Source: Candidatus Firestoneibacteriota bacterium
GTDB taxonomy: Bacteria; Oederibacteriota; D2-FULL-39-29; JBBTED01
Length of the DNA stretch: 64,000 nt
Direction: 5' to 3'
Assembly: GCA_038042445.1 (NCBI GenBank)
Contig: JBBTED010000067.1
Location: 5,310 to 69,309 of the forward strand
Positions 16,674 to 64,000 of the stretch are shown in pieces. Position numbers and translations under genes: made by a program. The notes under the pieces are model-generated. The model saw nothing but the letters and a program-made list of their open reading frames with translations. It was not told the origin of the DNA and made no database searches. The stretch's first letter is position 1, and every line of letters begins with the position of its first letter.

Positions 16674-16871
16674 ATGTCGTCAAGTACACTTTCATTATTA
16701 GATGTTGAACGAGCAATCAAAAAATTTGAACCGGAAAAGCAAAGAAAATTACTTGTAAAACTTCCTTCACTTTTAAAAATAAAAGTAGAAAATTTAGAGC
16801 TTTTAAAACTTGCAGAAGAATCTTTTGAATTTTGGAAAAATCCCGAAGATAAAATCTATGACACTCTTTAA
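16674..16871 (+). CDS. Putative antitoxin of a MazEF/PemIK-like type II toxin-antitoxin pair
   Basis: A small 65-aa ORF (MSSSTLSLLDVERAIKKF...) with an RBS. It overlaps the toxin start by 14 nt. Confidence 0.5.
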   Translation: MSSSTLSLLDVERAIKKFEPEKQRKLLVKLPSLLKIKVENLELLKLAEESFEFWKNPEDKIYDTL

Positions 16872-17205
16872 TAGCGGGGATGTTGTATTAATAGGTTTTC
16901 CATTTACTGATTTGTCAGGTTCAAAGCAAAGGCCTGGTGTAATAATTTCATCAAAATTATATAATGAAAAAGGAATAGATGTTATTATTGCTGCTATTAC
17001 TTCACAGATTCAGGACAAAATAGAAAATGATGAATATTGTCTTACAGAAAAAGAGCAAAAGATTGCAGGATTACCAAAAAAGTCTATTATAAAAGTTGGC
17101 AAGATAATAACTATTGATCAACGATTAATTAGAAAGAAGCTGGGATATTTAACATCAGAAACATTAGCAAATATTAGAAATATCCTACTAAAAATTCATA
17201 TATAA
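16858..17205 (+). CDS. MazF/PemK family endoribonuclease toxin
   Basis: GDVVLIGFPFTDLSGSKQRPGVIIS...VIIAAITSQ...KLGYL is a typical PemK fold signature. Confidence 0.7.
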   Translation: MTLFNSGDVVLIGFPFTDLSGSKQRPGVIISSKLYNEKGIDVIIAAITSQIQDKIENDEYCLTEKEQKIAGLPKKSIIKVGKIITIDQRLIRKKLGYLTSETLANIRNILLKIHI

Positions 17206-17245
17206 AATAACGTAATAGACTTAGCTGTAACAATCATTTCTGTCA

Positions 17246-17596
17246 TCAATATTTGGATTTTTTCTTGAATACTTGTGAAAGAATATTAAAAGCCACTTTT
17301 TTATCTTCTACACTTTTTGCTCTGATGATATTGCTGATTTTATTTATATATGGGTCTACTTTGTAAATTACTACTGGCTTGTGAAATGCAAATAAATTAC
17401 TTAAAGAAATAGTCAGTGCTTCACAAATTCTTACCAGTGTTTCTATAGATGGAACATTTTTGCCTCTTTCAATCTGGGACAAATAACTCCAGTCTCTTTG
17501 TGTTTTCTCTGCAAGCTGTTCTAATGTCATACCCCTTTTATTTCTTTCGTTTCTGATGATTTTACCAATATATTTATAGATTTCAGTTGTTTCCAT
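17246..17596 (-). CDS. XRE-family HTH transcriptional regulator
   Basis: The HTH_3 core is GMTLEQLAEKTQRDWSYLSQIERGKNVPSIETLVRICEAL. Confidence 0.75.
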   Translation of the reverse strand: METTEIYKYIGKIIRNERNKRGMTLEQLAEKTQRDWSYLSQIERGKNVPSIETLVRICEALTISLSNLFAFHKPVVIYKVDPYINKISNIIRAKSVEDKKVAFNILSQVFKKKSKY

Positions 17597-17776
17597 TGTT
17601 TCTCCTTTGGATTTTCAATATACCGTTAATACGACCAAAAGTGTATAATCTATAAGCACACCATTAGCAAAATACACATTGACTATATACCCAAAATATG
17701 GCATACTATAATATAGAAAGATAAAGTTCAATTGTAACGAAATAGGTTATTGGTTCTATGTAAGGTTTTATGTAGG

Positions 17777-17865
17777 GCAAGGCTTTAGCCTTGCGGATGC
17801 AGGCGGATGCAAACTTTGCTTAAACACGTGTCATTCCCGCGTGTAATAAGCGGGAATCCAGTGTC
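17777..17865. repeat. Two repeat hairpins: GCAAGGCTTTAGCCTTGC, and a GTCATTCCCGCgtgtaataaGCGGGAATCCAGTGTC half-element
   Basis: Inverted repeats are visible. The second unit matches the MITE halves at 18801-18893 and 57331-57422. Confidence 0.65.
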
Positions 17866-17935
17866 TATTGTTGTATTACAAGTGAAACTGGGTTTAATGG
17901 TGGCTACTAAAAATGAAAGAAAATATGCAGAAATT

Positions 17936-18268
17936 TTATGTGAAAATTATTTTTGCAATTTTTATTAGTATGTCAATTTGTTTTGATGTTCTATTTTTGA
18001 TAACATTGAAAAGCTCTCTGTGTTTTCTATCTTTACTTTTCCATTTGCTTTCTTCAACGAACAAGTCAACAAGTGAAACATTTAAAGCATCTGCAATTTT
18101 CTGTAAAGTCTCCAAGGAGGGACCTTTTGCACCTCTTTCAATGAGGCCAATATAACTGTTATGCAAATTACTTTTTTCAGAAAGCTTTTCTTGTGTCAAA
18201 TTTTGTTCAGTTCTCAAGCATTTTATTCTATTCCCAAGCAATTTATAAAGCTCATTAAATTCGTTCAT
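17936..18268 (-). CDS. XRE-family HTH transcriptional regulator, paralogous to 17246-17596
   Basis: NLTQEKLSEKSNLHNSYIGLIERGAKGPSLETLQKIADAL. It is divergent from the + strand gene string starting at 18429. Confidence 0.75.
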   Translation of the reverse strand: MNEFNELYKLLGNRIKCLRTEQNLTQEKLSEKSNLHNSYIGLIERGAKGPSLETLQKIADALNVSLVDLFVEESKWKSKDRKHRELFNVIKNRTSKQIDILIKIAKIIFT

Positions 18269-18380
18269 TTAGAGAATAAGTCTACATCAAAACCCACTAA
18301 AAGTGAAGTAACCCACAGTATTATTTTTATTGACTGTAGGTATTGTTTTATGTAATTATATTTATGGTAACACTGGTAGC

Positions 18381-18398
18381 CGCAGGCTTTAGCCTGCG
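18381..18398. repeat. Hairpin repeat CGCAGGCTTTAGCCTGCG (family also at 23534, 43600, 53199 and 53230)
   Basis: A perfect 7-bp stem with a TTTA loop. It is preceded by GGTAGC in several copies. Confidence 0.65.
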
Positions 18399-18428
18399 TA
18401 TCTAGTAGAAACAAGGATGTGAAAATTT

Positions 18429-18776
18429 ATGAACTTGAGGCAAGGTGAAATTAAACAAATTGAAAGTGATATTAATCTCCAAAAAAGTAACGGTTGGAGT
18501 TCATTAGCGAGTTTTATGTATGCAGCAAGTAAATATCTGAATCGTATTGGTATGCAGATTAATAAGGATAATTTATATGACTTAAATATTGCTTGCCATA
18601 GACAGTTAGGAATAACACAATATGCTAAAAATTCTATAATGCCATCAGATTATGCTTTTCCTAAATATGGTTTAGGAAAAGGTAAAACAGGCAAGAACAC
18701 AAAAAAATACCCAAAATTTTTGGAGAAAATTGATGGCAAAAAAGGTAAGAATTTTGAACTTGACTATTCCCTATAG
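18429..18776 (+). CDS. Hypothetical protein (115 aa)
   Basis: ORF only; no family recognised. Confidence 0.35.
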   Translation: MNLRQGEIKQIESDINLQKSNGWSSLASFMYAASKYLNRIGMQINKDNLYDLNIACHRQLGITQYAKNSIMPSDYAFPKYGLGKGKTGKNTKKYPKFLEKIDGKKGKNFELDYSL

Positions 18777-18800
18777 CTTGCTACAGGGTTACAATATTTT

Positions 18801-18893
18801 GTCATGCCCGAATGTAGTAATCGGGCATCCAGAGTCTTGTTTTATCAATGTTTTAAAGACACTGGATTCCCGATAGAAACATTCGGGAATGAC
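18801..18893. repeat. MITE-like element of about 93 bp with terminal inverted repeats GTCATGCCCGAATG...CATTCGGGAATGAC
   Basis: Two hairpin subunits sit in inverted orientation around an AT-rich core. A near-identical architecture is at 57331-57422. It is flanked by CCCYRTAGCTTGCTACRGGG hairpins at about 18766 and 18926. Confidence 0.7.
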
Positions 18894-19053
18894 GGTATTA
18901 CTTAAGTATTTTTTAGTTTTTGGATACCCCGTAGCTTGCTACGGGGAGGTTCATTTTATATGATAATAAAACAAAATGTTATTTTAAAATTCGGGGTAAG
19001 TTCAGTGTCCCACGAATTATAAATGTAAAGATGCAACATTTGAAGCAAGTGAT

Positions 19054-19692
19054 ATGGCAGAACAATTAAAAAGTGAAATAGGAAAAGGTTTTGAAGATGT
19101 ATTTATGAAAAAAAGTCTAAAAATTTTTGGGTTTATTCTTGGTGGCATTGTAGGTATTATATTTACCAAACTTTTTTTATTGAAGTCCTATGAAGATGAA
19201 AAAAAGAATGAGAAATTGACAGAGAAAGAAGAAGAAAAAAAGTTACATCAATTAGATGATTACTATGATGATTATATTCGAAGAAGAGATGAATTTAATA
19301 AAATTAGATCAGATACTATGGATTCGGTTGATAAAATAATATTGACTTTATCAACTGGTACATTAGTTCTATCAATTACATTTTTAGATAAAATTGGAAA
19401 ACCTATCAATTATTCTTTTATTTTAGTATGTTCATGGTGTTTTTTAATGGTTTCTCTCTTACTAAATATTCTTAGTTTTATATTTGCAAGAATAAATATA
19501 GAAAACAAAATTCAGGATTTGGATGATAAATACGAAGAACGTAAAGAAGATAAGAAATATTTTGTTGAAAAAAACTTTATTTGGGAAAAGTGGACTGATT
19601 TTTGTAATTATTTTGCTTTATTTTCATTTCTTATAGGTATTATTAGTTTTTTTATTTATGCATTAATAATTATATTTGATAATTGTAAATAG
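19054..19692 (+). CDS. Hypothetical membrane protein (212 aa)
   Basis: An N-terminal TM helix, a charged coiled region and about three C-terminal TM helices. Confidence 0.4.
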   Translation: MAEQLKSEIGKGFEDVFMKKSLKIFGFILGGIVGIIFTKLFLLKSYEDEKKNEKLTEKEEEKKLHQLDDYYDDYIRRRDEFNKIRSDTMDSVDKIILTLSTGTLVLSITFLDKIGKPINYSFILVCSWCFLMVSLLLNILSFIFARINIENKIQDLDDKYEERKEDKKYFVEKNFIWEKWTDFCNYFALFSFLIGIISFFIYALIIIFDNCK

Positions 19693-19706
19693 AATGGAGG
19701 TGCATT

Positions 19707-19763
19707 ATGGCCAGTAAAAAAACAGGTGGGAAAACACCATCTAAACCACCTAAAAAGAAATAA
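19707..19763 (+). CDS. Small 18-aa Lys-rich peptide MASKKTGGKTPSKPPKKK with a strong RBS
   Basis: GGAGGTG lies 5 nt upstream of the ATG. It sits immediately after the preceding stop. The ORF is below the 60-aa track cutoff. Confidence 0.3.
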   Translation: MASKKTGGKTPSKPPKKK

Positions 19764-19800
19764 AATTTTTATATGTTTATGAATTAGGAGATATAAAATT

Positions 19801-20037
19801 ATGGAAATAGAAATTAGTGATAATTTTGGAGTAAATGGTGGACTGCATTATGGAACACCTGTAAATGTTGTAAGAGAACTTAAAGCAATATGGAATATTA
19901 CAGCACGAGTATCTGAAGAGATAAGGAATAAAAGTGTTGATGATTGGGCAAAAGATATAAGGGAACATATGCCGTTTTTAAATTGTTGGTATGAAAAATT
20001 ATTAAAAGAGAAAAACATCCTTTTTCAAATGAATTAA
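19801..20037 (+). CDS. Hypothetical protein (78 aa)
   Basis: An RBS AGGAG precedes it. The stop overlaps the next start (TAATG). Confidence 0.4.
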   Translation: MEIEISDNFGVNGGLHYGTPVNVVRELKAIWNITARVSEEIRNKSVDDWAKDIREHMPFLNCWYEKLLKEKNILFQMN

Positions 20038-20198
20038 TGACTATTTTTGCACTTGCTTATGGCGAGCCAAACTATCAATGGGTAAGTATTCAGAATATTA
20101 TATGGGATGATGGTTCCACTACTACAAGGGATGATTTACTTAGAATGCAATTGGATGAAGAAAAATTCAATAATTTACAGAGATTAGGTTTAATATAG
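20037..20198 (+). CDS. Hypothetical small protein (53 aa, MTIFALAYGEPNYQWVS...). It is translationally coupled to the previous ORF.
   Basis: The TAATG overlap was found manually. It is not in the ORF track. Confidence 0.3.
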   Translation: MTIFALAYGEPNYQWVSIQNIIWDDGSTTTRDDLLRMQLDEEKFNNLQRLGLI

Positions 20199-20200
20199 TT

Positions 20201-20788
20201 TTGAAATTTAAAAAGAATAAAGAAATGGATAATTTAAAAGATATTTATATTAGTTATTTCAATCAGATGAGAGATGGTGAATCAAATATTTTCAAATTTC
20301 TCACTACACTTTTTACTGCTATTGGAGGATTTTATATTGTTGTTAAAAATAATGTTGTTGAAAATAATTTAGATTGGTTATTGTTTTCAGCAATTGGATC
20401 TACTATTGTACTTATATGGGGAATTCTTTATGTTTTATCAATAGGTTATACGCATAGATATTTGCAGGTAATAATGTGGTATTATGAAAATAAATTAAAA
20501 TTACCCAATTTCAAATCTTGGGATCCAAAAAAATTTAAAAAGTTGAAAGTATGCCAAAGCTTATTATTAGAACCTACTCCGGGAATTTATAAAATCCATC
20601 TTATAGGATTTATTATGGGAATTATGTTAGTTTGGTATTGGTACGGATTTTTAAAAAATAACAACCATATTGGTTGTGTGATTATACTATTTCTTATTGT
20701 GTGGTTGCTTACTGCTTGTTTAAATTATTACTATATGAACAAACTAAAAAAAATAATTGAAAAAGGAATTAATAATGATAAAACTTAA
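20201..20788 (+). CDS. Hypothetical membrane protein (about 4-5 TM helices). It is the first gene of the tight surface-protein operon.
   Basis: Hydrophobic helices throughout. It overlaps the next ORF. Confidence 0.4.
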   Translation: MKFKKNKEMDNLKDIYISYFNQMRDGESNIFKFLTTLFTAIGGFYIVVKNNVVENNLDWLLFSAIGSTIVLIWGILYVLSIGYTHRYLQVIMWYYENKLKLPNFKSWDPKKFKKLKVCQSLLLEPTPGIYKIHLIGFIMGIMLVWYWYGFLKNNNHIGCVIILFLIVWLLTACLNYYYMNKLKKIIEKGINNDKT

Positions 20789-23480
20789 TAAATTTTTTAA
20801 AATTATTTTTATAGTAATAGTTTATAGTATAATTAACGATTTTACATATACTTATGCTGTAACTTATACATTAGACAGCACAGGAAATGTTGGAGGGTAT
20901 AACTCTATAGCCATAGACAGTAATAACAAAGTTCATATTGGTTATTATGATGTTACAAATGGAGATTTAAAATACGCAACGAATATATCTGGTTCATGGG
21001 TAACATCTACTTTGGATAGTTCAGGAACTGTTGGATGGTGGAGCTCTATAGCCATAGACAGTAATAACAAAGTTCATATTGGTTATTATGATGCTACAAA
21101 TGGAGATTTAAAATACGCAACGAATATATCTGGTTCTTGGGTAACATCTACTTTGGATAGTTCAGGAACTGTTGGATGGTATAACTCTATAGCCATAGAC
21201 AGTAATAACAAAGTTCATATTAGTTATATGGATTATACAAATGCAGATTTAAAATACGCAACAAATACATCTGGTTCTTGGGTATATACAACATTAGATG
21301 ATATTGGAAGTAGTTTAGATGGTTCTCAAAACCGTACTTCAATCACAATAGATAGTAATAATAAAGTCCATATTAGTTATGCTATGGGTTTTGGTGGTAA
21401 TTTAAAATATGCAACAAATACATCAGGTAGTTGGGTGTGTATATCATTAGGTATAGGATTTACTTCTTCAATAGCCATAGACAATAATAATAAAGTTTAT
21501 ATAAGTTATAATGGGACAGATTTAAGATATGGTACAAACGCATCTGGTAGTTGGGTGACATCAACATTAGATAGTGCGTTCTCAAATTCTTTCATAGCGA
21601 TAGATAACAATAACAAGATTCATATAAGTTGTTTTGATAGTACAAATGCAGATTTAAAATATGTTACAAATGCTGGTAATACAGCACCAACATTATCATG
21701 GACAGGCGAGGCAAATTATACTTCAGATGGAATAAATCCAGAAATAGGAAACACAAGTTCAACATTTATATACAGGATTAAATATACCGATACTGATAAT
21801 GATGCACCGGCGAGTGGGTATCCAAAGGTGCATATTAAGAAAGCAGGAGTTGAAATAAGCGGTAGTCCATTTACAATGAGTTATGTAAGTGGAAGTTATA
21901 GCACAGGAGCAATTTATACATATTCTAAAACATTAAGTTCTTTGGGAACTGACTACACATATTATTTTGAAGCGCAGGATGTGTGGAATGAAGTAGCAAC
22001 AGGCACGCCAACAATCGCTGTTGATTCTCCTGATGTCAATAATGCTCCTGCATTATCTTGGACCGGTGAGACAAATTATGTATCTGACGGGTTAGATCCG
22101 CATACAGGAAATACAGCAATAACATTTACATACAGAGTGAAGTATACGGATGCTGATGCTTTAGCAAGTGGATATCCAAAAGTTCATATTAAAAAAGCAG
22201 GAAGTGAAATATCTGGTAGTCCATTCACAATGACTTATGTAAGTGGAACATATTCAGGCGGAGCGATTTACACTTATTCTAAAATACTTTCTACCGTTGG
22301 AATTGACTATACATATTATTTTGAGGCACAGGATGTATATAACGAAGTAGCAACTGGAATACCAACAACATCAGTAGATGCTCCTGATGTTTCTGCTATT
22401 CCTCTTATTTCTCCAAATACAGCACCCATTTTTTCCTGGACAGGTGAAACAAATTATACGGCTAATGGGATTTATCCTACTTTAGGAAATGCGAGTACTA
22501 CTTTTGTTTTTAGGGTGAAATATACGGATGCAGATAATGATGCTCCTGCATCAGGATATCCTAAATTGTATATTAAAAAAGGTGGTGTAGAAATTTCTGG
22601 TAGTCCGTTTGCTATGGTGACAGTAGATAGTAGTTTGTATTCAGCAGGTCCAATTTATACTTATTCTACGGTTTTAACTAAATCAGGTGCTGATTATACT
22701 TATTATTTTGAGGCGAAAGATGTATTAAATGGTCTTGCAACAGGAATACCTACAAATCCTTTTGATGCACCTGATGTTAATGTAATTCAGGCAAATCAAG
22801 ATACCAATATAGTAAGTGAAGACGGAACCAGTATTGATATTCCAAAGGATACACTAAATCCAGGAGTTGCAATTAACATCACTATTCCTTCTGTTATTCC
22901 TGAAGGAGAAGTCCAAAATGCAGGATATTCAGTTAAGCAGACAAATATAACAAGAGAAATAACTACATCAGATGGGAGTAAAAATTTTAATAAGGAAATA
23001 AAAATATCTATTCCATTTAAAGATTCTGATGTTGCTGGAATAAATAAACAAAACCTGAAATTATTCTATTATTCTGAAGAAAGGAAAATGTGGATTTTAA
23101 TTCCATCTGCTGTAGTTGATACTAATAAAAATACAATTTCTATATTAGTTACACATTTGACAATTTTTAGGATAATGGCACTTGAGCCAACATCAGCAGT
23201 ATTAGTTTTATATAACAATTTGTTTGACCCTGCAAATAATGAAAAATTATATGTTCGTTATGATATTGTGCAAGAAGTAGATGTTACAGTTACTGTGTAT
23301 AGCATCAAGGGGCAAAAGATAAAAGAATTATTTAATGGTAGAAAAACTGCTGGTAGTTACACTGATTTAACCTGGGATGGCAAGAATGAAGATGGAGAGG
23401 TTGTAGCAAGTGGTATTTATGTTGTGTATATTTCTGCAGGGGATTTTAGAGATAAGAAAAAAGTGGTGGTGGTGAAATGA
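20757..23480 (+). CDS. Large secreted repeat protein: signal peptide, 7 beta-propeller-like 45-aa repeats, 3 repeats of about 120 aa, and a C-terminal FlgD-Ig/T9SS-CTD-like domain
   Basis: The signal is IIFIVIVYSIINDFTYTYA. The propeller repeat is SIAIDSNNKVHIxYxDxTNxDLKYATNxSGSWV, present 7 times. The 120-aa repeat is SWTGExNY...YTDxDxDAPASGYPKVHIKKAG, present 3 times. The tail is VYSIKGQKIKELF...WDGKNEDGEVVASGIYVV...KKVVVVK. Confidence 0.7.
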   Translation: MKKELIMIKLNKFFKIIFIVIVYSIINDFTYTYAVTYTLDSTGNVGGYNSIAIDSNNKVHIGYYDVTNGDLKYATNISGSWVTSTLDSSGTVGWWSSIAIDSNNKVHIGYYDATNGDLKYATNISGSWVTSTLDSSGTVGWYNSIAIDSNNKVHISYMDYTNADLKYATNTSGSWVYTTLDDIGSSLDGSQNRTSITIDSNNKVHISYAMGFGGNLKYATNTSGSWVCISLGIGFTSSIAIDNNNKVYISYNGTDLRYGTNASGSWVTSTLDSAFSNSFIAIDNNNKIHISCFDSTNADLKYVTNAGNTAPTLSWTGEANYTSDGINPEIGNTSSTFIYRIKYTDTDNDAPASGYPKVHIKKAGVEISGSPFTMSYVSGSYSTGAIYTYSKTLSSLGTDYTYYFEAQDVWNEVATGTPTIAVDSPDVNNAPALSWTGETNYVSDGLDPHTGNTAITFTYRVKYTDADALASGYPKVHIKKAGSEISGSPFTMTYVSGTYSGGAIYTYSKILSTVGIDYTYYFEAQDVYNEVATGIPTTSVDAPDVSAIPLISPNTAPIFSWTGETNYTANGIYPTLGNASTTFVFRVKYTDADNDAPASGYPKLYIKKGGVEISGSPFAMVTVDSSLYSAGPIYTYSTVLTKSGADYTYYFEAKDVLNGLATGIPTNPFDAPDVNVIQANQDTNIVSEDGTSIDIPKDTLNPGVAINITIPSVIPEGEVQNAGYSVKQTNITREITTSDGSKNFNKEIKISIPFKDSDVAGINKQNLKLFYYSEERKMWILIPSAVVDTNKNTISILVTHLTIFRIMALEPTSAVLVLYNNLFDPANNEKLYVRYDIVQEVDVTVTVYSIKGQKIKELFNGRKTAGSYTDLTWDGKNEDGEVVASGIYVVYISAGDFRDKKKVVVVK

Positions 23481-60765: not shown

Positions 60766-60850
60766 TTTCTAAAAATTATTTGATATATTTAAAACGTTCG
60801 CCTATGCGGGCGTTTTTTTATTAACAGAACATTTTAAAACCAATAAAAAA

Positions 60851-62065
60851 ATGGAACAGTGGAAGAAGAATTTATATGCATTATGGGGAATGCAGTTTGT
60901 TAGTGTGCTTGGTATGAGTATGATTTTGCCATTTATACCATTTTACATACGAACTTTAGGAATTACAAATTTAAATGATGTGTCTTTGTGGAGTGGTATA
61001 ACTATGGGTATAGGATTTATTTTTTCTGCGATTTTTTCACCTATATGGGGTGATTTTAGTGATAGATATGGCAGAAAAGTGATGATAATTCGTGCTGTTT
61101 TTGCAATAGCAATACTGAATTTATTGATGGCGTTTGCTCGCAATGTATATGATTTATTGATACTGAGGATATTGCAGGGATGTTTTGGTGGGTTTGTGGG
61201 TGCATCAGCAGCTTTAGTTTCAACATCTGTTCCACAACAAAAAATGGGTTATGCATTTGGTATACTTCAAACATCTATGATTGCAGGTAGTATTGGTGGC
61301 CCATTTATTGGTGGTGTCCTTGCAGATTTAGTTGGGTATCGCTTTGTATTTATTTTAACAGCAACTTTTATTTTTATAGGTGGATTGATTGTGACAATAA
61401 TGGTTAAAGAGGAAAAACATCTTTTAAGTAAAGAAAAAGGCGGAGGAATTATTGAAAATATAAAATCTGTTTTTGCATCTAAACAATTATTCGTAATAAT
61501 GTTAGTGCAATGTGTTATACAGATAGCTGTAATGGTTTTACAGCCAATACTACCTTTATTTATATCAAGTTTTCAAAAGGATGTTAAATATGTAGCAACT
61601 ATAACAGGTTTAGTATTTAGTTCAACTGCAATTACAACTTTATTTGCATCTTCTTTTTGGGGAAAAAAAGGAGATGTTTTAGGTCATAAAAAATCACTTT
61701 CTGTTTGTTTGCTTGGTTCTGCAATTTTAATGGCTCCACATTTTTTCATAAAAAATATCGGACAGCTTTTATTACTAAGAATGGGGCTTGGAGTTTTTGT
61801 TGCTGGAATTTCTCCATCAACTCAAACAATGATTACTGCATATATTCCAAGAAAAAAAAGAGGTGGAATGATGGGTATTGCTAATAGTTTTTCAATGATA
61901 GGTATGGCAATGGGCCCTTTATTAGGAGGTTTTCTTGGAGCTAAATTTGGATTAAGAATTCCATTTCTTGTTACGAGCGCATTATTATTTATTACATTCT
62001 GGCTTGTCTATAAACTTGTTAAAGAACCAGTTAATACTGAGTTTATAGCTACAGGAATTGAATGA
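60851..62065 (+). CDS. MFS transporter (12 TM)
   Basis: The GDFSDRYGRK motif between TM2 and TM3. Confidence 0.75.
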   Translation: MEQWKKNLYALWGMQFVSVLGMSMILPFIPFYIRTLGITNLNDVSLWSGITMGIGFIFSAIFSPIWGDFSDRYGRKVMIIRAVFAIAILNLLMAFARNVYDLLILRILQGCFGGFVGASAALVSTSVPQQKMGYAFGILQTSMIAGSIGGPFIGGVLADLVGYRFVFILTATFIFIGGLIVTIMVKEEKHLLSKEKGGGIIENIKSVFASKQLFVIMLVQCVIQIAVMVLQPILPLFISSFQKDVKYVATITGLVFSSTAITTLFASSFWGKKGDVLGHKKSLSVCLLGSAILMAPHFFIKNIGQLLLLRMGLGVFVAGISPSTQTMITAYIPRKKRGGMMGIANSFSMIGMAMGPLLGGFLGAKFGLRIPFLVTSALLFITFWLVYKLVKEPVNTEFIATGIE

Positions 62066-62100
62066 AAAAAGACAAAGCAATAAAAAAATTGGAGGTAAAA

Positions 62101-63693
62101 ATGTATAAAATTATTTTAATACTTGTGTGTTTTTATGTGATTGTTTGTTCACGAGAGGGATTTGCTCAGAAAAATGTTGATTCTGAAAAATGTTTTAGTT
62201 GTCATGCTGAAGTTAAGGAATTGTGGAGTTTAGGGAGACATAAACAACTTAATTGCACACAATGCCATAGTTTTTTAAATGAACATAATGAAGATTTTGA
62301 GAAAAAACCTGTTACAAATTTTGATCCTATGGTTTGTGGTAAATGCCACAAGAATCAATTTGAAACATTTTTTGAGGTTAATCTTAAAAAGCCAGCAAGA
62401 ATTGAAAAATCTTTGTTGACAGAGCGTTCTCCAAATCCATTTTGGGACAAATTGATGATGGGGCATGGTTTTACAAAAGAGCACAATGTTCCAAGAAGTC
62501 ATGCTTATATGCTTTTGGATCATTTGGTTGTAGATAGAGCTTATGGTGGCAGATTCCAGCCTAAAAACGGATGGGCATATACTATTACAAATACTCCTGT
62601 TAAAGTATGGGATGTTCTTGAAGATAAATATCCTGATACAAAAGAACACAAATCATTTATTCCTGAAAGTGCTGCTGCAGCAAATCCTGTATGTTTGCAA
62701 TGTAAAACTAATGATAGTATTTTGAAATGGAAATATATGGGAGAAAAAGATAAAAGTGCAAAATGGGATAGAACATCTAATCCTGTAGAATATGTAAAAG
62801 ATTTGCAAAATATTATAAGTTGTGTTCATTGTCATGACCCTCATGCTACAAAACCAAGAATTGTCCGAGATGGTTTAATTCATGCACTAACCCGTGATGA
62901 AAAAGATACATTATGGCATAATGATACTAAACAAACTCCAATTAAAGTTGTTGATTTCAGGGATTTCAGAAAAATAGCGATTCTTGATAAATATGATGCA
63001 AAACTTATGTGTGGACAATGTCATGTGGAGTATAACTGTAATCCAGGAGTAAATCCTGTTACAGGCGAAAAGGTTGGGTTCAATGACATAAGGACAAATC
63101 ATTTTCCGCTTAAAAATGTTTTTCAGATTTATGAGCATTATAACAAGCTTGAGTTTCGTGATTTCAAACATAGTTTGACTGGTGGGTTGCTTTTTAAGGC
63201 TCAGCATCCTGAGACTGAAGTATTCTGGAATTCAAAGCATGATAAAGCCGGGGTAAGCTGTAATAATTGCCATATGCCAAAAATAAAAGACAAAGATGGA
63301 AAAATTTTCACATCACATTGGCAGACAAGCCCAAAAAATTACATAAAAGAAACGTGTTTGAAATGTCATCCGCAATGGACGAATGAGCAGGCAGTGTATG
63401 CAATTGATTCAATTAAAAATCATATTAAAGGTAAGATGAGAAAGGCAGAATTTTGGCTGAGCAATTTAATTGATAAAATTGTAGAATCCAAAAAAACTGG
63501 AATAGATGAAAAAATTATTAAAGAAGCACAGGAACAACATCAAAAAGCCCATATTCTATGGGAATGGTGGACTGCAGAAAATTCAGATGGCTTCCACAAT
63601 CCAGACCAAGCAAGAGAGTCTTTAACTAAATCCGTAGAAGAATCCAAAAAAGGCATAGACCTATTAACAAAAGCTATATCAGAGAAAAAATAA
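62101..63693 (+). CDS. nrfA: NrfA-type cytochrome c nitrite reductase homolog with an N-terminal triheme extension: 7 CXXCH plus 1 CXXCK motif
   Basis: RBS GGAGGT. An N-terminal TM/signal helix. The motifs are CFSCH, CTQCH, CGKCH, CLQCK (aligning to E. coli CWSCK after the PRSHAY block), CVHCH, CGQCHVEY, CNNCHMP and CLKCH. KAQHPE and the Ca-site residues are conserved. Confidence 0.75.
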   Translation: MYKIILILVCFYVIVCSREGFAQKNVDSEKCFSCHAEVKELWSLGRHKQLNCTQCHSFLNEHNEDFEKKPVTNFDPMVCGKCHKNQFETFFEVNLKKPARIEKSLLTERSPNPFWDKLMMGHGFTKEHNVPRSHAYMLLDHLVVDRAYGGRFQPKNGWAYTITNTPVKVWDVLEDKYPDTKEHKSFIPESAAAANPVCLQCKTNDSILKWKYMGEKDKSAKWDRTSNPVEYVKDLQNIISCVHCHDPHATKPRIVRDGLIHALTRDEKDTLWHNDTKQTPIKVVDFRDFRKIAILDKYDAKLMCGQCHVEYNCNPGVNPVTGEKVGFNDIRTNHFPLKNVFQIYEHYNKLEFRDFKHSLTGGLLFKAQHPETEVFWNSKHDKAGVSCNNCHMPKIKDKDGKIFTSHWQTSPKNYIKETCLKCHPQWTNEQAVYAIDSIKNHIKGKMRKAEFWLSNLIDKIVESKKTGIDEKIIKEAQEQHQKAHILWEWWTAENSDGFHNPDQARESLTKSVEESKKGIDLLTKAISEKK

Positions 63694-63713
63694 TGAGGAG
63701 ATAAATTCTACTT

Positions 63714-64000
63714 GTGTTAAAACTTTTACTAAAGATATTTTCGACGCCAAAAAATATAATTTTTATAAATCCAGATTACTATAATCAAATAGAAATTATC
63801 ACTATTGGAGAAAAGATACAAGACAAGGTAAAACGATTATTTCGAGGATCTCTTGCTATCAGACAGGTAGATGCTGGTTCTGATAATGCATGTGAACAGG
63901 AGCTTGTTGCTCTATCTAATGCTTTTTATGATATTGAGCGTTTTGGTATTCATTTCGTTGCTTCTCCAAAACATGCGGATATGCTTATGGTGACTGGTCC
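63714..64000 (+). CDS. NuoB/HycG-like (NADH dehydrogenase 20 kDa / group-4 hydrogenase small subunit) protein, 3'-truncated, lacking two of the first three conserved FeS-cluster cysteines. The start is uncertain (GTG at 63714?).
   Basis: GSLAIRQVDAGSDNACEQELVALSNAFYDIERFGIHFVASPKHADMLMVTG aligns with HycG RVDCGGCNGCEIEI...DAERFGI..VPSPRHADILLFTG. The first and second Cys are replaced by A and D. Confidence 0.5.
   Translation, partial: MLKLLLKIFSTPKNIIFINPDYYNQIEIITIGEKIQDKVKRLFRGSLAIRQVDAGSDNACEQELVALSNAFYDIERFGIHFVASPKHADMLMVTG

Follow-up and report, generated by a model that had tools for sequence, protein, structure and literature searches.

Energy-converting-hydrogenase-related (Ehr) complexes are widespread relatives of respiratory complex I and of the energy-converting hydrogenases, and we know of no demonstrated function for any of them. 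They are defined as complexes related to the group 4 [NiFe] hydrogenases that lack the ligands of the NiFe site (Coppi 2005 and Marreiros 2013, as summarised in PMC6349859 and PMC4758237). Within the Candidate Phyla Radiation (CPR), a monophyletic Ehr clade without large-subunit metal ligands has already been published (PMC7304191). Here, we describe an Ehr locus at the end of a 64,000-nucleotide DNA stretch, hereafter the window, from a bacterium classified as Candidatus Firestoneibacteriota (GenBank assembly GCA_038042445.1, contig JBBTED010000067.1, positions 5,310 to 69,309 of the forward strand). The window closes inside a reading frame that, judged by its translation and by the genes behind it, is ehrS, the first gene of a six-gene Ehr operon. 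We assign the operon to Ehr because it encodes a group-4-like large subunit without NiFe ligands together with the Ehr subunit set. The locus is a further Ehr of a known family and of the known CPR-type clade, found in a host outside the CPR and among unusual neighbouring genes. In this clade every redox-cofactor site is lost, yet the intact operon is strongly conserved. We lean, if only slightly, towards the explanation that the cofactor-free complex is a redox-independent ion translocator and that its placement behind a nitrite reductase gene is not a functional pairing.

ehrS opens with GTG at position 63714 on the forward strand, and its frame is uninterrupted to the window end (63714..64000, the first 95 of 180 codons). 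A ribosome-binding site, GAGGAG, is read at 63695-63700 on the same strand, 13 nt before the GTG. The remaining 256 nt of the gene lie past the window. They were taken, together with the partner genes, from public contigs identical to the window (Hainich groundwater metagenomes, longest 82 kb), which were reached via the neighbouring 543-residue protein. This agrees with the first-pass annotation, made from the letters of the window alone, which had placed the rest of the gene and its partners beyond the window end. The full gene was translated from two of these contigs, L001 and L002. Position 64000 of the window is position 10287 of L002, and window coordinates are obtained by adding 53713 to those of L002.

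The fragment alone gives a sub-threshold match to the Pfam family Oxidored_q6 (E=0.0028, 17.8 bits for a cut-off of 27). The full-length EhrS, of 180 residues, carries a precomputed PF01058 (Oxidored_q6) assignment. It matches MbhJ of Pyrococcus furiosus with E=3e-29 over 126 ungapped residues, HycG of Escherichia coli with E=6e-27 and the NuoB/PSST subunit of complex I with about 1e-22. Homologues number in the thousands, and the best 120 listed are 70-100% identical. Because of the PF01058 assignment, the MbhJ and HycG E values and the thousands of homologues, the family assignment is secure. By these comparisons EhrS is a member of the NuoB/HycG family far beyond chance, and the first-pass proposal of this family is borne out. 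The NCBIfam NuoB and NuoD scores of the complex's subunits are under their cut-offs. In NCBI, the complete protein is named “MAG: hydrogenase [Candidatus Firestonebacteria bacterium]”, where MAG stands for metagenome-assembled genome.

In the alignment with MbhJ and HycG, the N-terminal ligand segment of the family reads G-S/G-C-N-G-C; NuoB has a tandem CC. In EhrS, the C-N-G-C ligand pair of the proximal [4Fe-4S] cluster is replaced by D57-N58-A59-C60 (codons at 63882..63893, forward strand). The first ligand has become Asp57 and the second is kept as Cys60. Past the window, the third ligand (GxC) is replaced by D124 in GDDAING and the fourth (P-G-C-P-P) by D154 in LGDPPSP. The ligand pattern is D-C-D-D for C-C-C-C, with three of the four ligands gone. 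The peptides quoted in the first-pass annotation are exact (DIERFGIHFVASPKHADMLMVTG, residues 73-95, and A-G-S-D-N-A-C, residues 54-60). Its reading of them needs correction, however. It had taken C-G-x-C-x-x-C as canonical and two of three N-terminal ligands as lost. The family motif is a C-x-x-C pair, C-N-G-C in MbhJ and HycG, and of the two ligand positions in the segment, the first has gone (Asp57) while the second survives (Cys60). Over full-length EhrS, the earlier count understates the loss.

An alternative start that would restore cysteines was considered and rejected. GTG 63714 is the first start after an in-frame stop, residues 1-59 contain no cysteine, and the homologues share a start at M-x-K-L-(F/L)-L-K-I. 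The earlier idea that a corrected start might reveal intact CxxC motifs is therefore contradicted, since no upstream start is available and the homologues begin alike.

The replacement residues are strongly conserved. Among the best 120 homologues, the pattern is DCDD in 82, DCDN in 30, DADD in 5, DADN in 2 and DVDD in 1. D57 and D124 are invariant in all 120 and C60 is found in 112. Because Ala or Val stands at this position in some close homologues, the surviving C60 appears to be dispensable, which argues against a Cys-ligated cluster. An AlphaFold2 model of EhrS, calculated from a 25-sequence alignment, has a mean predicted local distance difference test score (pLDDT) of 55.7. The values are below 50 over residues 58-75 and 124-155, which are the former cluster-binding loops, and no structural conclusion was drawn from the model.

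The six genes are on one strand in the order ehrS-A-B-C-D-L, with intergenic gaps of -4 to +8 nt and all reading frames intact. On the forward strand, ehrS is followed by ehrA, encoding a NuoL/HyfB-like protein of 683 residues (HycC E=7e-79, MbhH E=9e-62), and ehrB, encoding a NuoH/HycD-like protein of 309 residues (HycD E=8e-40). The fourth gene, ehrC, encodes a HyfE/NuoK-like protein of 217 residues, with a match to hydrogenase-4 membrane subunit/Oxidored_q2. The fifth, ehrD, encodes a HyfF/NuoM-N-like protein of 480 residues. The last gene, ehrL (L002 15632-17200), encodes a fused NuoC-NuoD protein of 522 residues (HycE E=2e-65). NuoC/D-, NuoH- and NuoL-like subunits had been named in the first-pass annotation as partners to look for, and they indeed follow ehrS. 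The fragment is thus not an isolated one among unrelated genes. The NuoI-like ferredoxin named with them was not found: no gene for a 2x[4Fe-4S] ferredoxin of the NuoI/HycF/MbhN type is present between ehrS and ehrL or elsewhere in the cassette.

The loss of cofactor sites extends to the large subunit. In the alignment of EhrL with HycE, CGIC is replaced by SGDS and DPCYSC by NLSYSG, so that the four NiFe cysteines are Ser, Ser, Ser and Gly. This loss, together with the operon content, supports the Ehr-type complex suggested in the first-pass annotation. In the alignment with Nqo4 (Thermus thermophilus numbering), the quinone ligands His38 and Tyr87 are replaced by Ile and Gly, respectively. 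EhrL ends in ...SGNDL, without a maturation extension, and no hyp maturation gene was found within the 20 kb examined around the cassette. Altogether, the six Ehr proteins contain 12 cysteines and no CxxC motif.

The membrane arm, on the other hand, keeps its ion-path residues. EhrA has AWE (Glu of transmembrane helix (TM) 5), GTKAG (Lys of TM7), MIKTG (Lys of TM8) and FFSEW (Glu of TM12). EhrD has SIE (Glu), GTKVG (Lys) and FLTKI (Lys). The helix assignment of these motifs is what we take to be the anatomy of NuoL, NuoM and NuoN, helped by the HycC and MbhH alignments.

To place the locus among its relatives, 80 genome loci and 80 metagenome loci were collected via the small subunit. The taxonomic labels of MAGs may be unreliable and gene calling in the fetched loci is crude. 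In the genome set, all recovered large subunits lack the NiFe cysteines. Four groups of genome loci were distinguished. In the first, which includes the window, the small-subunit gene S comes first and the cluster ligands are lost (DCDD, TCDD, SEGD, TEGN and similar); the hosts are mostly CPR/Patescibacteria, with a few MAGs labelled Syntrophus, Thermoleophilia and Bdellovibrionales. In the second group, S is also first, and the pattern is CCCC in one Rokubacteria and one Chloroflexi locus and PCCC in a second Rokubacteria locus. The third group, which is the majority, has S last and keeps the four cysteines (Proteobacteria, Acidobacteria, Nitrospirota). The fourth has S last and DTDN or DPDN, in Methanosarcina and others. 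Loci of this last group (L058, L076, L078, L049 and L070, with S at about 10001) come from Methanosarcina, Methanosarcinales, Dehalococcoidales and Moduliflexus MAGs, and their small-subunit motifs are GSDN(S/A)(T/P)E, GDDAC and PGNPP.

In a wider sample, made up of the 150 nearest representatives of a 50%-identity clustered library, some three quarters retain the first three cysteines or all four, and roughly 25 clusters lack two or more. The first-pass annotation had stated that cysteine-less small subunits occur in Ehr/Mbx-like complexes. This is true of the present Ehr clade but does not hold in general, since most sampled Ehr keep all four cysteines. Mbx/MBS, likewise, keeps its cluster.

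The order S-A-B-C-D-L is common to the related S-first loci sampled. An alignment of 25 EhrS sequences contains 66 invariant columns, with 70-79% identity across phyla. The cassette is under strong purifying selection, which argues against decay. Among the aligned genome loci, the large subunits share near-invariant motifs in place of the former NiFe site: GP(V/I)HAGIIEPGHFRF, SGD(S/T) and, at the very C-terminus, NKSFN(L/C)SYSG(N/H)DL. These motifs point to a conserved site rather than a decayed one.

The Ehr subunits of the window organism are 59-77% identical to those of Magasanikiibacteriota. In a neighbour-joining tree of large subunits, calculated without bootstrap from Ehr-like sequences only and with no bona fide hydrogenases as outgroup, EhrL falls inside a CPR-dominated cluster-less clade, beside Magasanikiibacteriota and Kaiserbacteria. 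An interphylum transfer of Ehr at some time is suggested. In the same unbootstrapped tree, the Methanosarcina-type clade is placed elsewhere. Its separate position implies that this clade would have lost the cluster ligands independently, with similar Asp/Asn replacements.

The surroundings of the cassette in relatives are recurrent. In CPR relatives, the operon for a complete F1Fo ATP synthase (a, c, b, delta, alpha, gamma, beta, epsilon) can directly precede the cassette in the same orientation. Of the 25 cluster-less-clade loci whose upstream flank reaches 3 kb or more, 7 have this arrangement, as do two further loci with shorter flanks; these are raw locus counts in which kinship is ignored (L006 1728-8891; also L008, L011, L088, L089, L093, L104, L014 and L101). 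Moreover, a Na+/H+ exchanger (PF00999) gene, a DedA-family (VTT-domain) gene or both adjoin the cassette in six loci. Both are directly upstream in L019 (7070-9867), L018 (4198-6970) and L022 (7172-9887), L021 and L118 have only the DedA gene upstream, and the exchanger is directly downstream in L006 (17341-18645). The Kaiserbacteria locus L010 has an extra antiporter-like gene at about 17238, after the large subunit, besides the standard two.

In the window, the gene upstream of ehrS (62062..63693, forward strand) encodes an octaheme cytochrome c nitrite reductase of the ONR/TvNiR family with a hydrophobic N-terminal signal or anchor (PDB 8rv0, E=3e-173; TvNiR, PDB 2ot4, E=1e-167). Eight haem motifs are found, seven CxxCH and one CLQCK at residue 211. 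Its best match to a pentahaem NrfA is at 3.5e-32 and the NCBIfam NrfA scores are far under cut-off. Identity with pentahaem NrfA was rejected, as there are eight haem motifs instead of five and the octaheme structures match far better. The first-pass annotation had placed ehrS directly downstream of nrfA. The adjacency is correct, with a 20-nt gap after the stop codon of the nitrite reductase gene, but the enzyme is of the octaheme TvNiR family.

Further upstream, an MdtG-like transporter of the major facilitator superfamily (MFS) is encoded at 60851..62065 on the forward strand (Pfam MFS_1 E=7e-62; the best NCBIfam match, MdtG, is below cut-off). Its gene overlaps the nitrite reductase start by 4 nt. 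A strong intrinsic-terminator-like hairpin with an 11-bp stem and a T-run is located at 60791..60816 (forward strand; L002 7078-7103), after an aldolase gene. No terminator-like site was found between the MFS, nitrite reductase and ehrS genes. Because of the 4-nt overlap, the 20-nt gap and the terminator-like hairpin present only upstream of the MFS gene, co-transcription of MFS, nitrite reductase and ehrSABCDL in this genome is likely, with MFS as the probable first gene. The hairpin is likely the upstream boundary of the transcription unit. A promoter scan was uninformative (47 sites, with 47 expected from shuffles). A recent horizontal transfer at the origin of the junction finds no support in base composition: from the MFS gene through the nitrite reductase to the Ehr genes, and in the flanks, the GC content is uniform (0.31-0.35).

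The pairing with nitrite reductase is not found elsewhere. No nitrite reductase homologue was observed at any of the 160 related Ehr loci, in available flanks of up to 10 kb. Conversely, none of the three close nitrite reductase homologues examined (78, 74 and 72% identity) has an Ehr cassette beside it; they adjoin pyrimidine biosynthesis, NapAB-like and haem biosynthesis genes. Thus, the pairing appears peculiar to this genome and is not a conserved functional pairing. Behind the octaheme nitrite reductase gene of one homologue locus (L167) come NapA/NapB-like genes, an arrangement also reported for Trichlorobacter ammonificans. Past the window, the end of the Ehr operon faces convergent genes for acetyl-CoA synthase (CdhC/ACS), a Fer2/Fer4 protein and a NuoF-like (Complex1_51K) protein (L002 17256-20543, minus strand). 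Wood-Ljungdahl-type genes are thus present on a contig labelled Firestonebacteria.

An ion translocator is the most likely function of the complex because the cofactor sites are lost while the membrane arm keeps the Glu and Lys residues of the ion path. The complex would be a secondary, redox-independent translocator or antiporter of H+ or another cation, working like Mrp. The Glu and Lys residues of EhrA and EhrD would carry the ions, as in complex I, MBH and Mrp. The cytoplasmic cap made of EhrS and EhrL would sit on the NuoH-like subunit as a structural part or as a gate, and the conserved carboxylates of the cap may fill the former cluster pocket or bind a cation there. Set against this model are the source annotations, which would make EhrS the small subunit of a genuine group 4 [NiFe] hydrogenase or formate hydrogenlyase. 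Its closest structural relatives are indeed MbhJ and HycG. This identity was nevertheless refuted at the sequence level, since all four NiFe cysteines of EhrL and three of the four cluster cysteines of EhrS are gone, no HycF-like subunit is encoded and EhrL stops at its terminal motif, without the extension removed during maturation; we regard it as practically negligible. Hardly more probable is a hydrogenase operon in decay that has lost its function. Such a remnant would account for the missing cofactor ligands but not for six intact, tightly spaced reading frames, 60-79% identity across phyla, invariant replacement residues and a gene order kept in dozens of genomes. The first-pass annotation had seen in the locus a membrane-bound respiratory module. 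In this case, the complex would be a redox enzyme working with the nitrite reductase, for example one in which a membrane carrier is reduced in the cavity between S, L and B. The close packing by which the MFS and nitrite reductase genes seem to form a single transcription unit with the ehr genes, and the high conservation of the S and L pocket residues, are in keeping with this idea, and Ehr complexes have been speculated to dock oxidoreductases (PMC6349859). However, S and L have no cofactor ligands, a NuoI-like subunit is missing, the quinone His and Tyr are gone and the pairing does not recur. Also, the octaheme nitrite reductase family acts in the periplasm (PMC11972089), in agreement with the signal or anchor of the present enzyme, whereas NuoB/D-type arms are cytoplasmic. 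Because the enzyme would be periplasmic, the S-L arm cytoplasmic and the complex devoid of any electron-carrying cofactor, a dedicated electron-transfer module is unsupported, and we find the respiratory module improbable.

The ion-translocator model itself meets several difficulties. We infer the mechanism from subunit anatomy and gene neighbourhood, and the ATP synthase adjacencies were counted as if the loci were unrelated. In the genome studied here, no ATP synthase gene is present in the 10-kb flanks of the cassette. The tight packing with nitrite reductase could reflect a functional link in this organism. Mrp works without NuoB-, NuoD- and NuoH-like subunits, and a pure antiporter model leaves their retention unexplained. 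Finally, the near-invariant EhrL motifs and the invariant D57 and D124 suggest specific chemistry or a ligand site rather than a mere cap. These last points would fit a cap in which non-redox catalysis or the sensing of a ligand drives or gates ion translocation. A metal or a substrate would then bind at the Asp triad or in the SGD/NKS...SYSG pocket. Such a cap would resemble the CO2-hydrating Cup/NDH-1 or DabAB modules, which sit on antiporter-like subunits. The invariance of the EhrL pocket motifs Ehr-wide and of the two Asp residues of EhrS would be expected, as would the similar D..D..N replacement reached independently in the Methanosarcina-type clade and the retention of NuoB/CD/H-like subunits that a plain antiporter does not need. 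There is, however, no candidate substrate and no catalytic domain fused or adjacent to the cassette. Besides, the residues at the former ligand positions differ among more distant cluster-less relatives (TCDD, SEGD, TEGN), so that no single metal site is universal. We hold this alternative to be rather unlikely but give it real weight. As a tentative proposal, less probable than the ion translocator as such, this clade might be a complex-I/MBH-type machine devoid of any redox cofactor, in which D57, D124 and D154 together with the invariant SGD/NKS..SYSG pocket form a new cation or ligand site by which ion translocation is driven or gated; the complex might be a partner of ATP synthase in CPR bacteria without electron transport chains and might have been recruited here into a nitrite-ammonification operon.

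The locus lies in the Ehr branch that has gone furthest, having lost the NiFe site, the Fe-S ligands, the ferredoxin subunit and the quinone ligands while staying under strong purifying selection. It may therefore show, as a clean experiment of nature, which role is left to the NuoB/NuoD/NuoH “coupling” module once electron transfer is removed. The repeated adjacency to ATP synthase and Na+/H+ exchanger genes may help to explain how CPR bacteria without respiratory chains handle ion gradients. Database names of these proteins include “hydrogenase”, “formate hydrogenlyase”, “Ni,Fe-hydrogenase III small subunit” and “NADH-quinone oxidoreductase subunit NuoB”. As the ligands are missing, such names mislead, and metabolic reconstructions that rely on them would be wrong to infer H2 or NADH metabolism.

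Far from the Ehr locus, the window contains, at about 16810-20800 (L169 9798-13776), genes for a PemK-type toxin and two helix-turn-helix (Xre-type) regulators as well as small reading frames without a Pfam match. This region, which comes after a prmC/RF-1 housekeeping block, may be a small mobile or toxin-antitoxin island.

Among described systems, the Ehr of CPR/Patescibacteria (Jaffe et al. 2020, PMC7304191) is the closest. It has the same S-A-B-C-D-L order and, as here, a large subunit without NiFe cysteines. The present host is labelled as a Candidatus Firestonebacteria MAG, in contrast, and its contig also carries acetyl-CoA synthase genes. The cassette comes after an octaheme nitrite reductase gene and not after ATP synthase or Na+/H+ exchanger genes. 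The published description of the CPR clade covers the large subunit only, and the Asp-for-Cys pattern of the small subunit was not found there. Similarly, the literature searched, which did not include the founding Ehr paper (Marreiros et al. 2013), yielded no report of the Asp/Asn-for-Cys signature, of total cofactor-site loss or of the ATP synthase link, and nothing relevant on Ehr structure; newness is not claimed. The Ehr of Geobacter sulfurreducens (GSU0739-0745; EhrA-D, EhrL, EhrS; PMC7894505) has the same six subunit kinds, matched by their published names. Its large subunit is also without NiFe ligands, and no function is assigned to it. Most sampled Ehr loci with S last keep the four cluster cysteines, unlike the S-first locus described here.

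The closest solved structures are those of MBH from P. furiosus (PDB 6CFW) and of formate hydrogenlyase/Hyf from E. coli (PDB 7Z0S). This holds for S (MbhJ, HycG) as well as for A (HycC, MbhH), B (HycD, MbhM) and L (HycE, MbhL). A peripheral arm and an antiporter-like architecture are shared with both. Three features of MBH and formate hydrogenlyase are missing from the present Ehr, namely the NiFe site, the proximal [4Fe-4S] cluster and the 2x[4Fe-4S] subunit (MbhN/HycF). With complex I, homologues of NuoB, C, D, H, K, L and M/N are shared. NuoA, E, F, G, I and J are missing, in contrast, as are the N2 ligands and the His38 and Tyr87 equivalents. Membership of respiratory complex I was rejected because these cluster and quinone ligands are absent. 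The Mrp Na+/H+ antiporter, like the present Ehr, has two antiporter-like subunits (TM5 Glu, TM7 Lys, TM12 Lys/Glu), a NuoK-like subunit and no redox cofactors. It lacks homologues of NuoB, NuoC/D and NuoH and has MrpB, E, F and G, which are absent here. Membership of the Mrp family was rejected, since only MrpA/D-like and NuoK-like parts are shared and NuoB/CD/H-like subunits are present besides. By analogy, Mrp is nonetheless the known system that the Ehr complex most plausibly works like.

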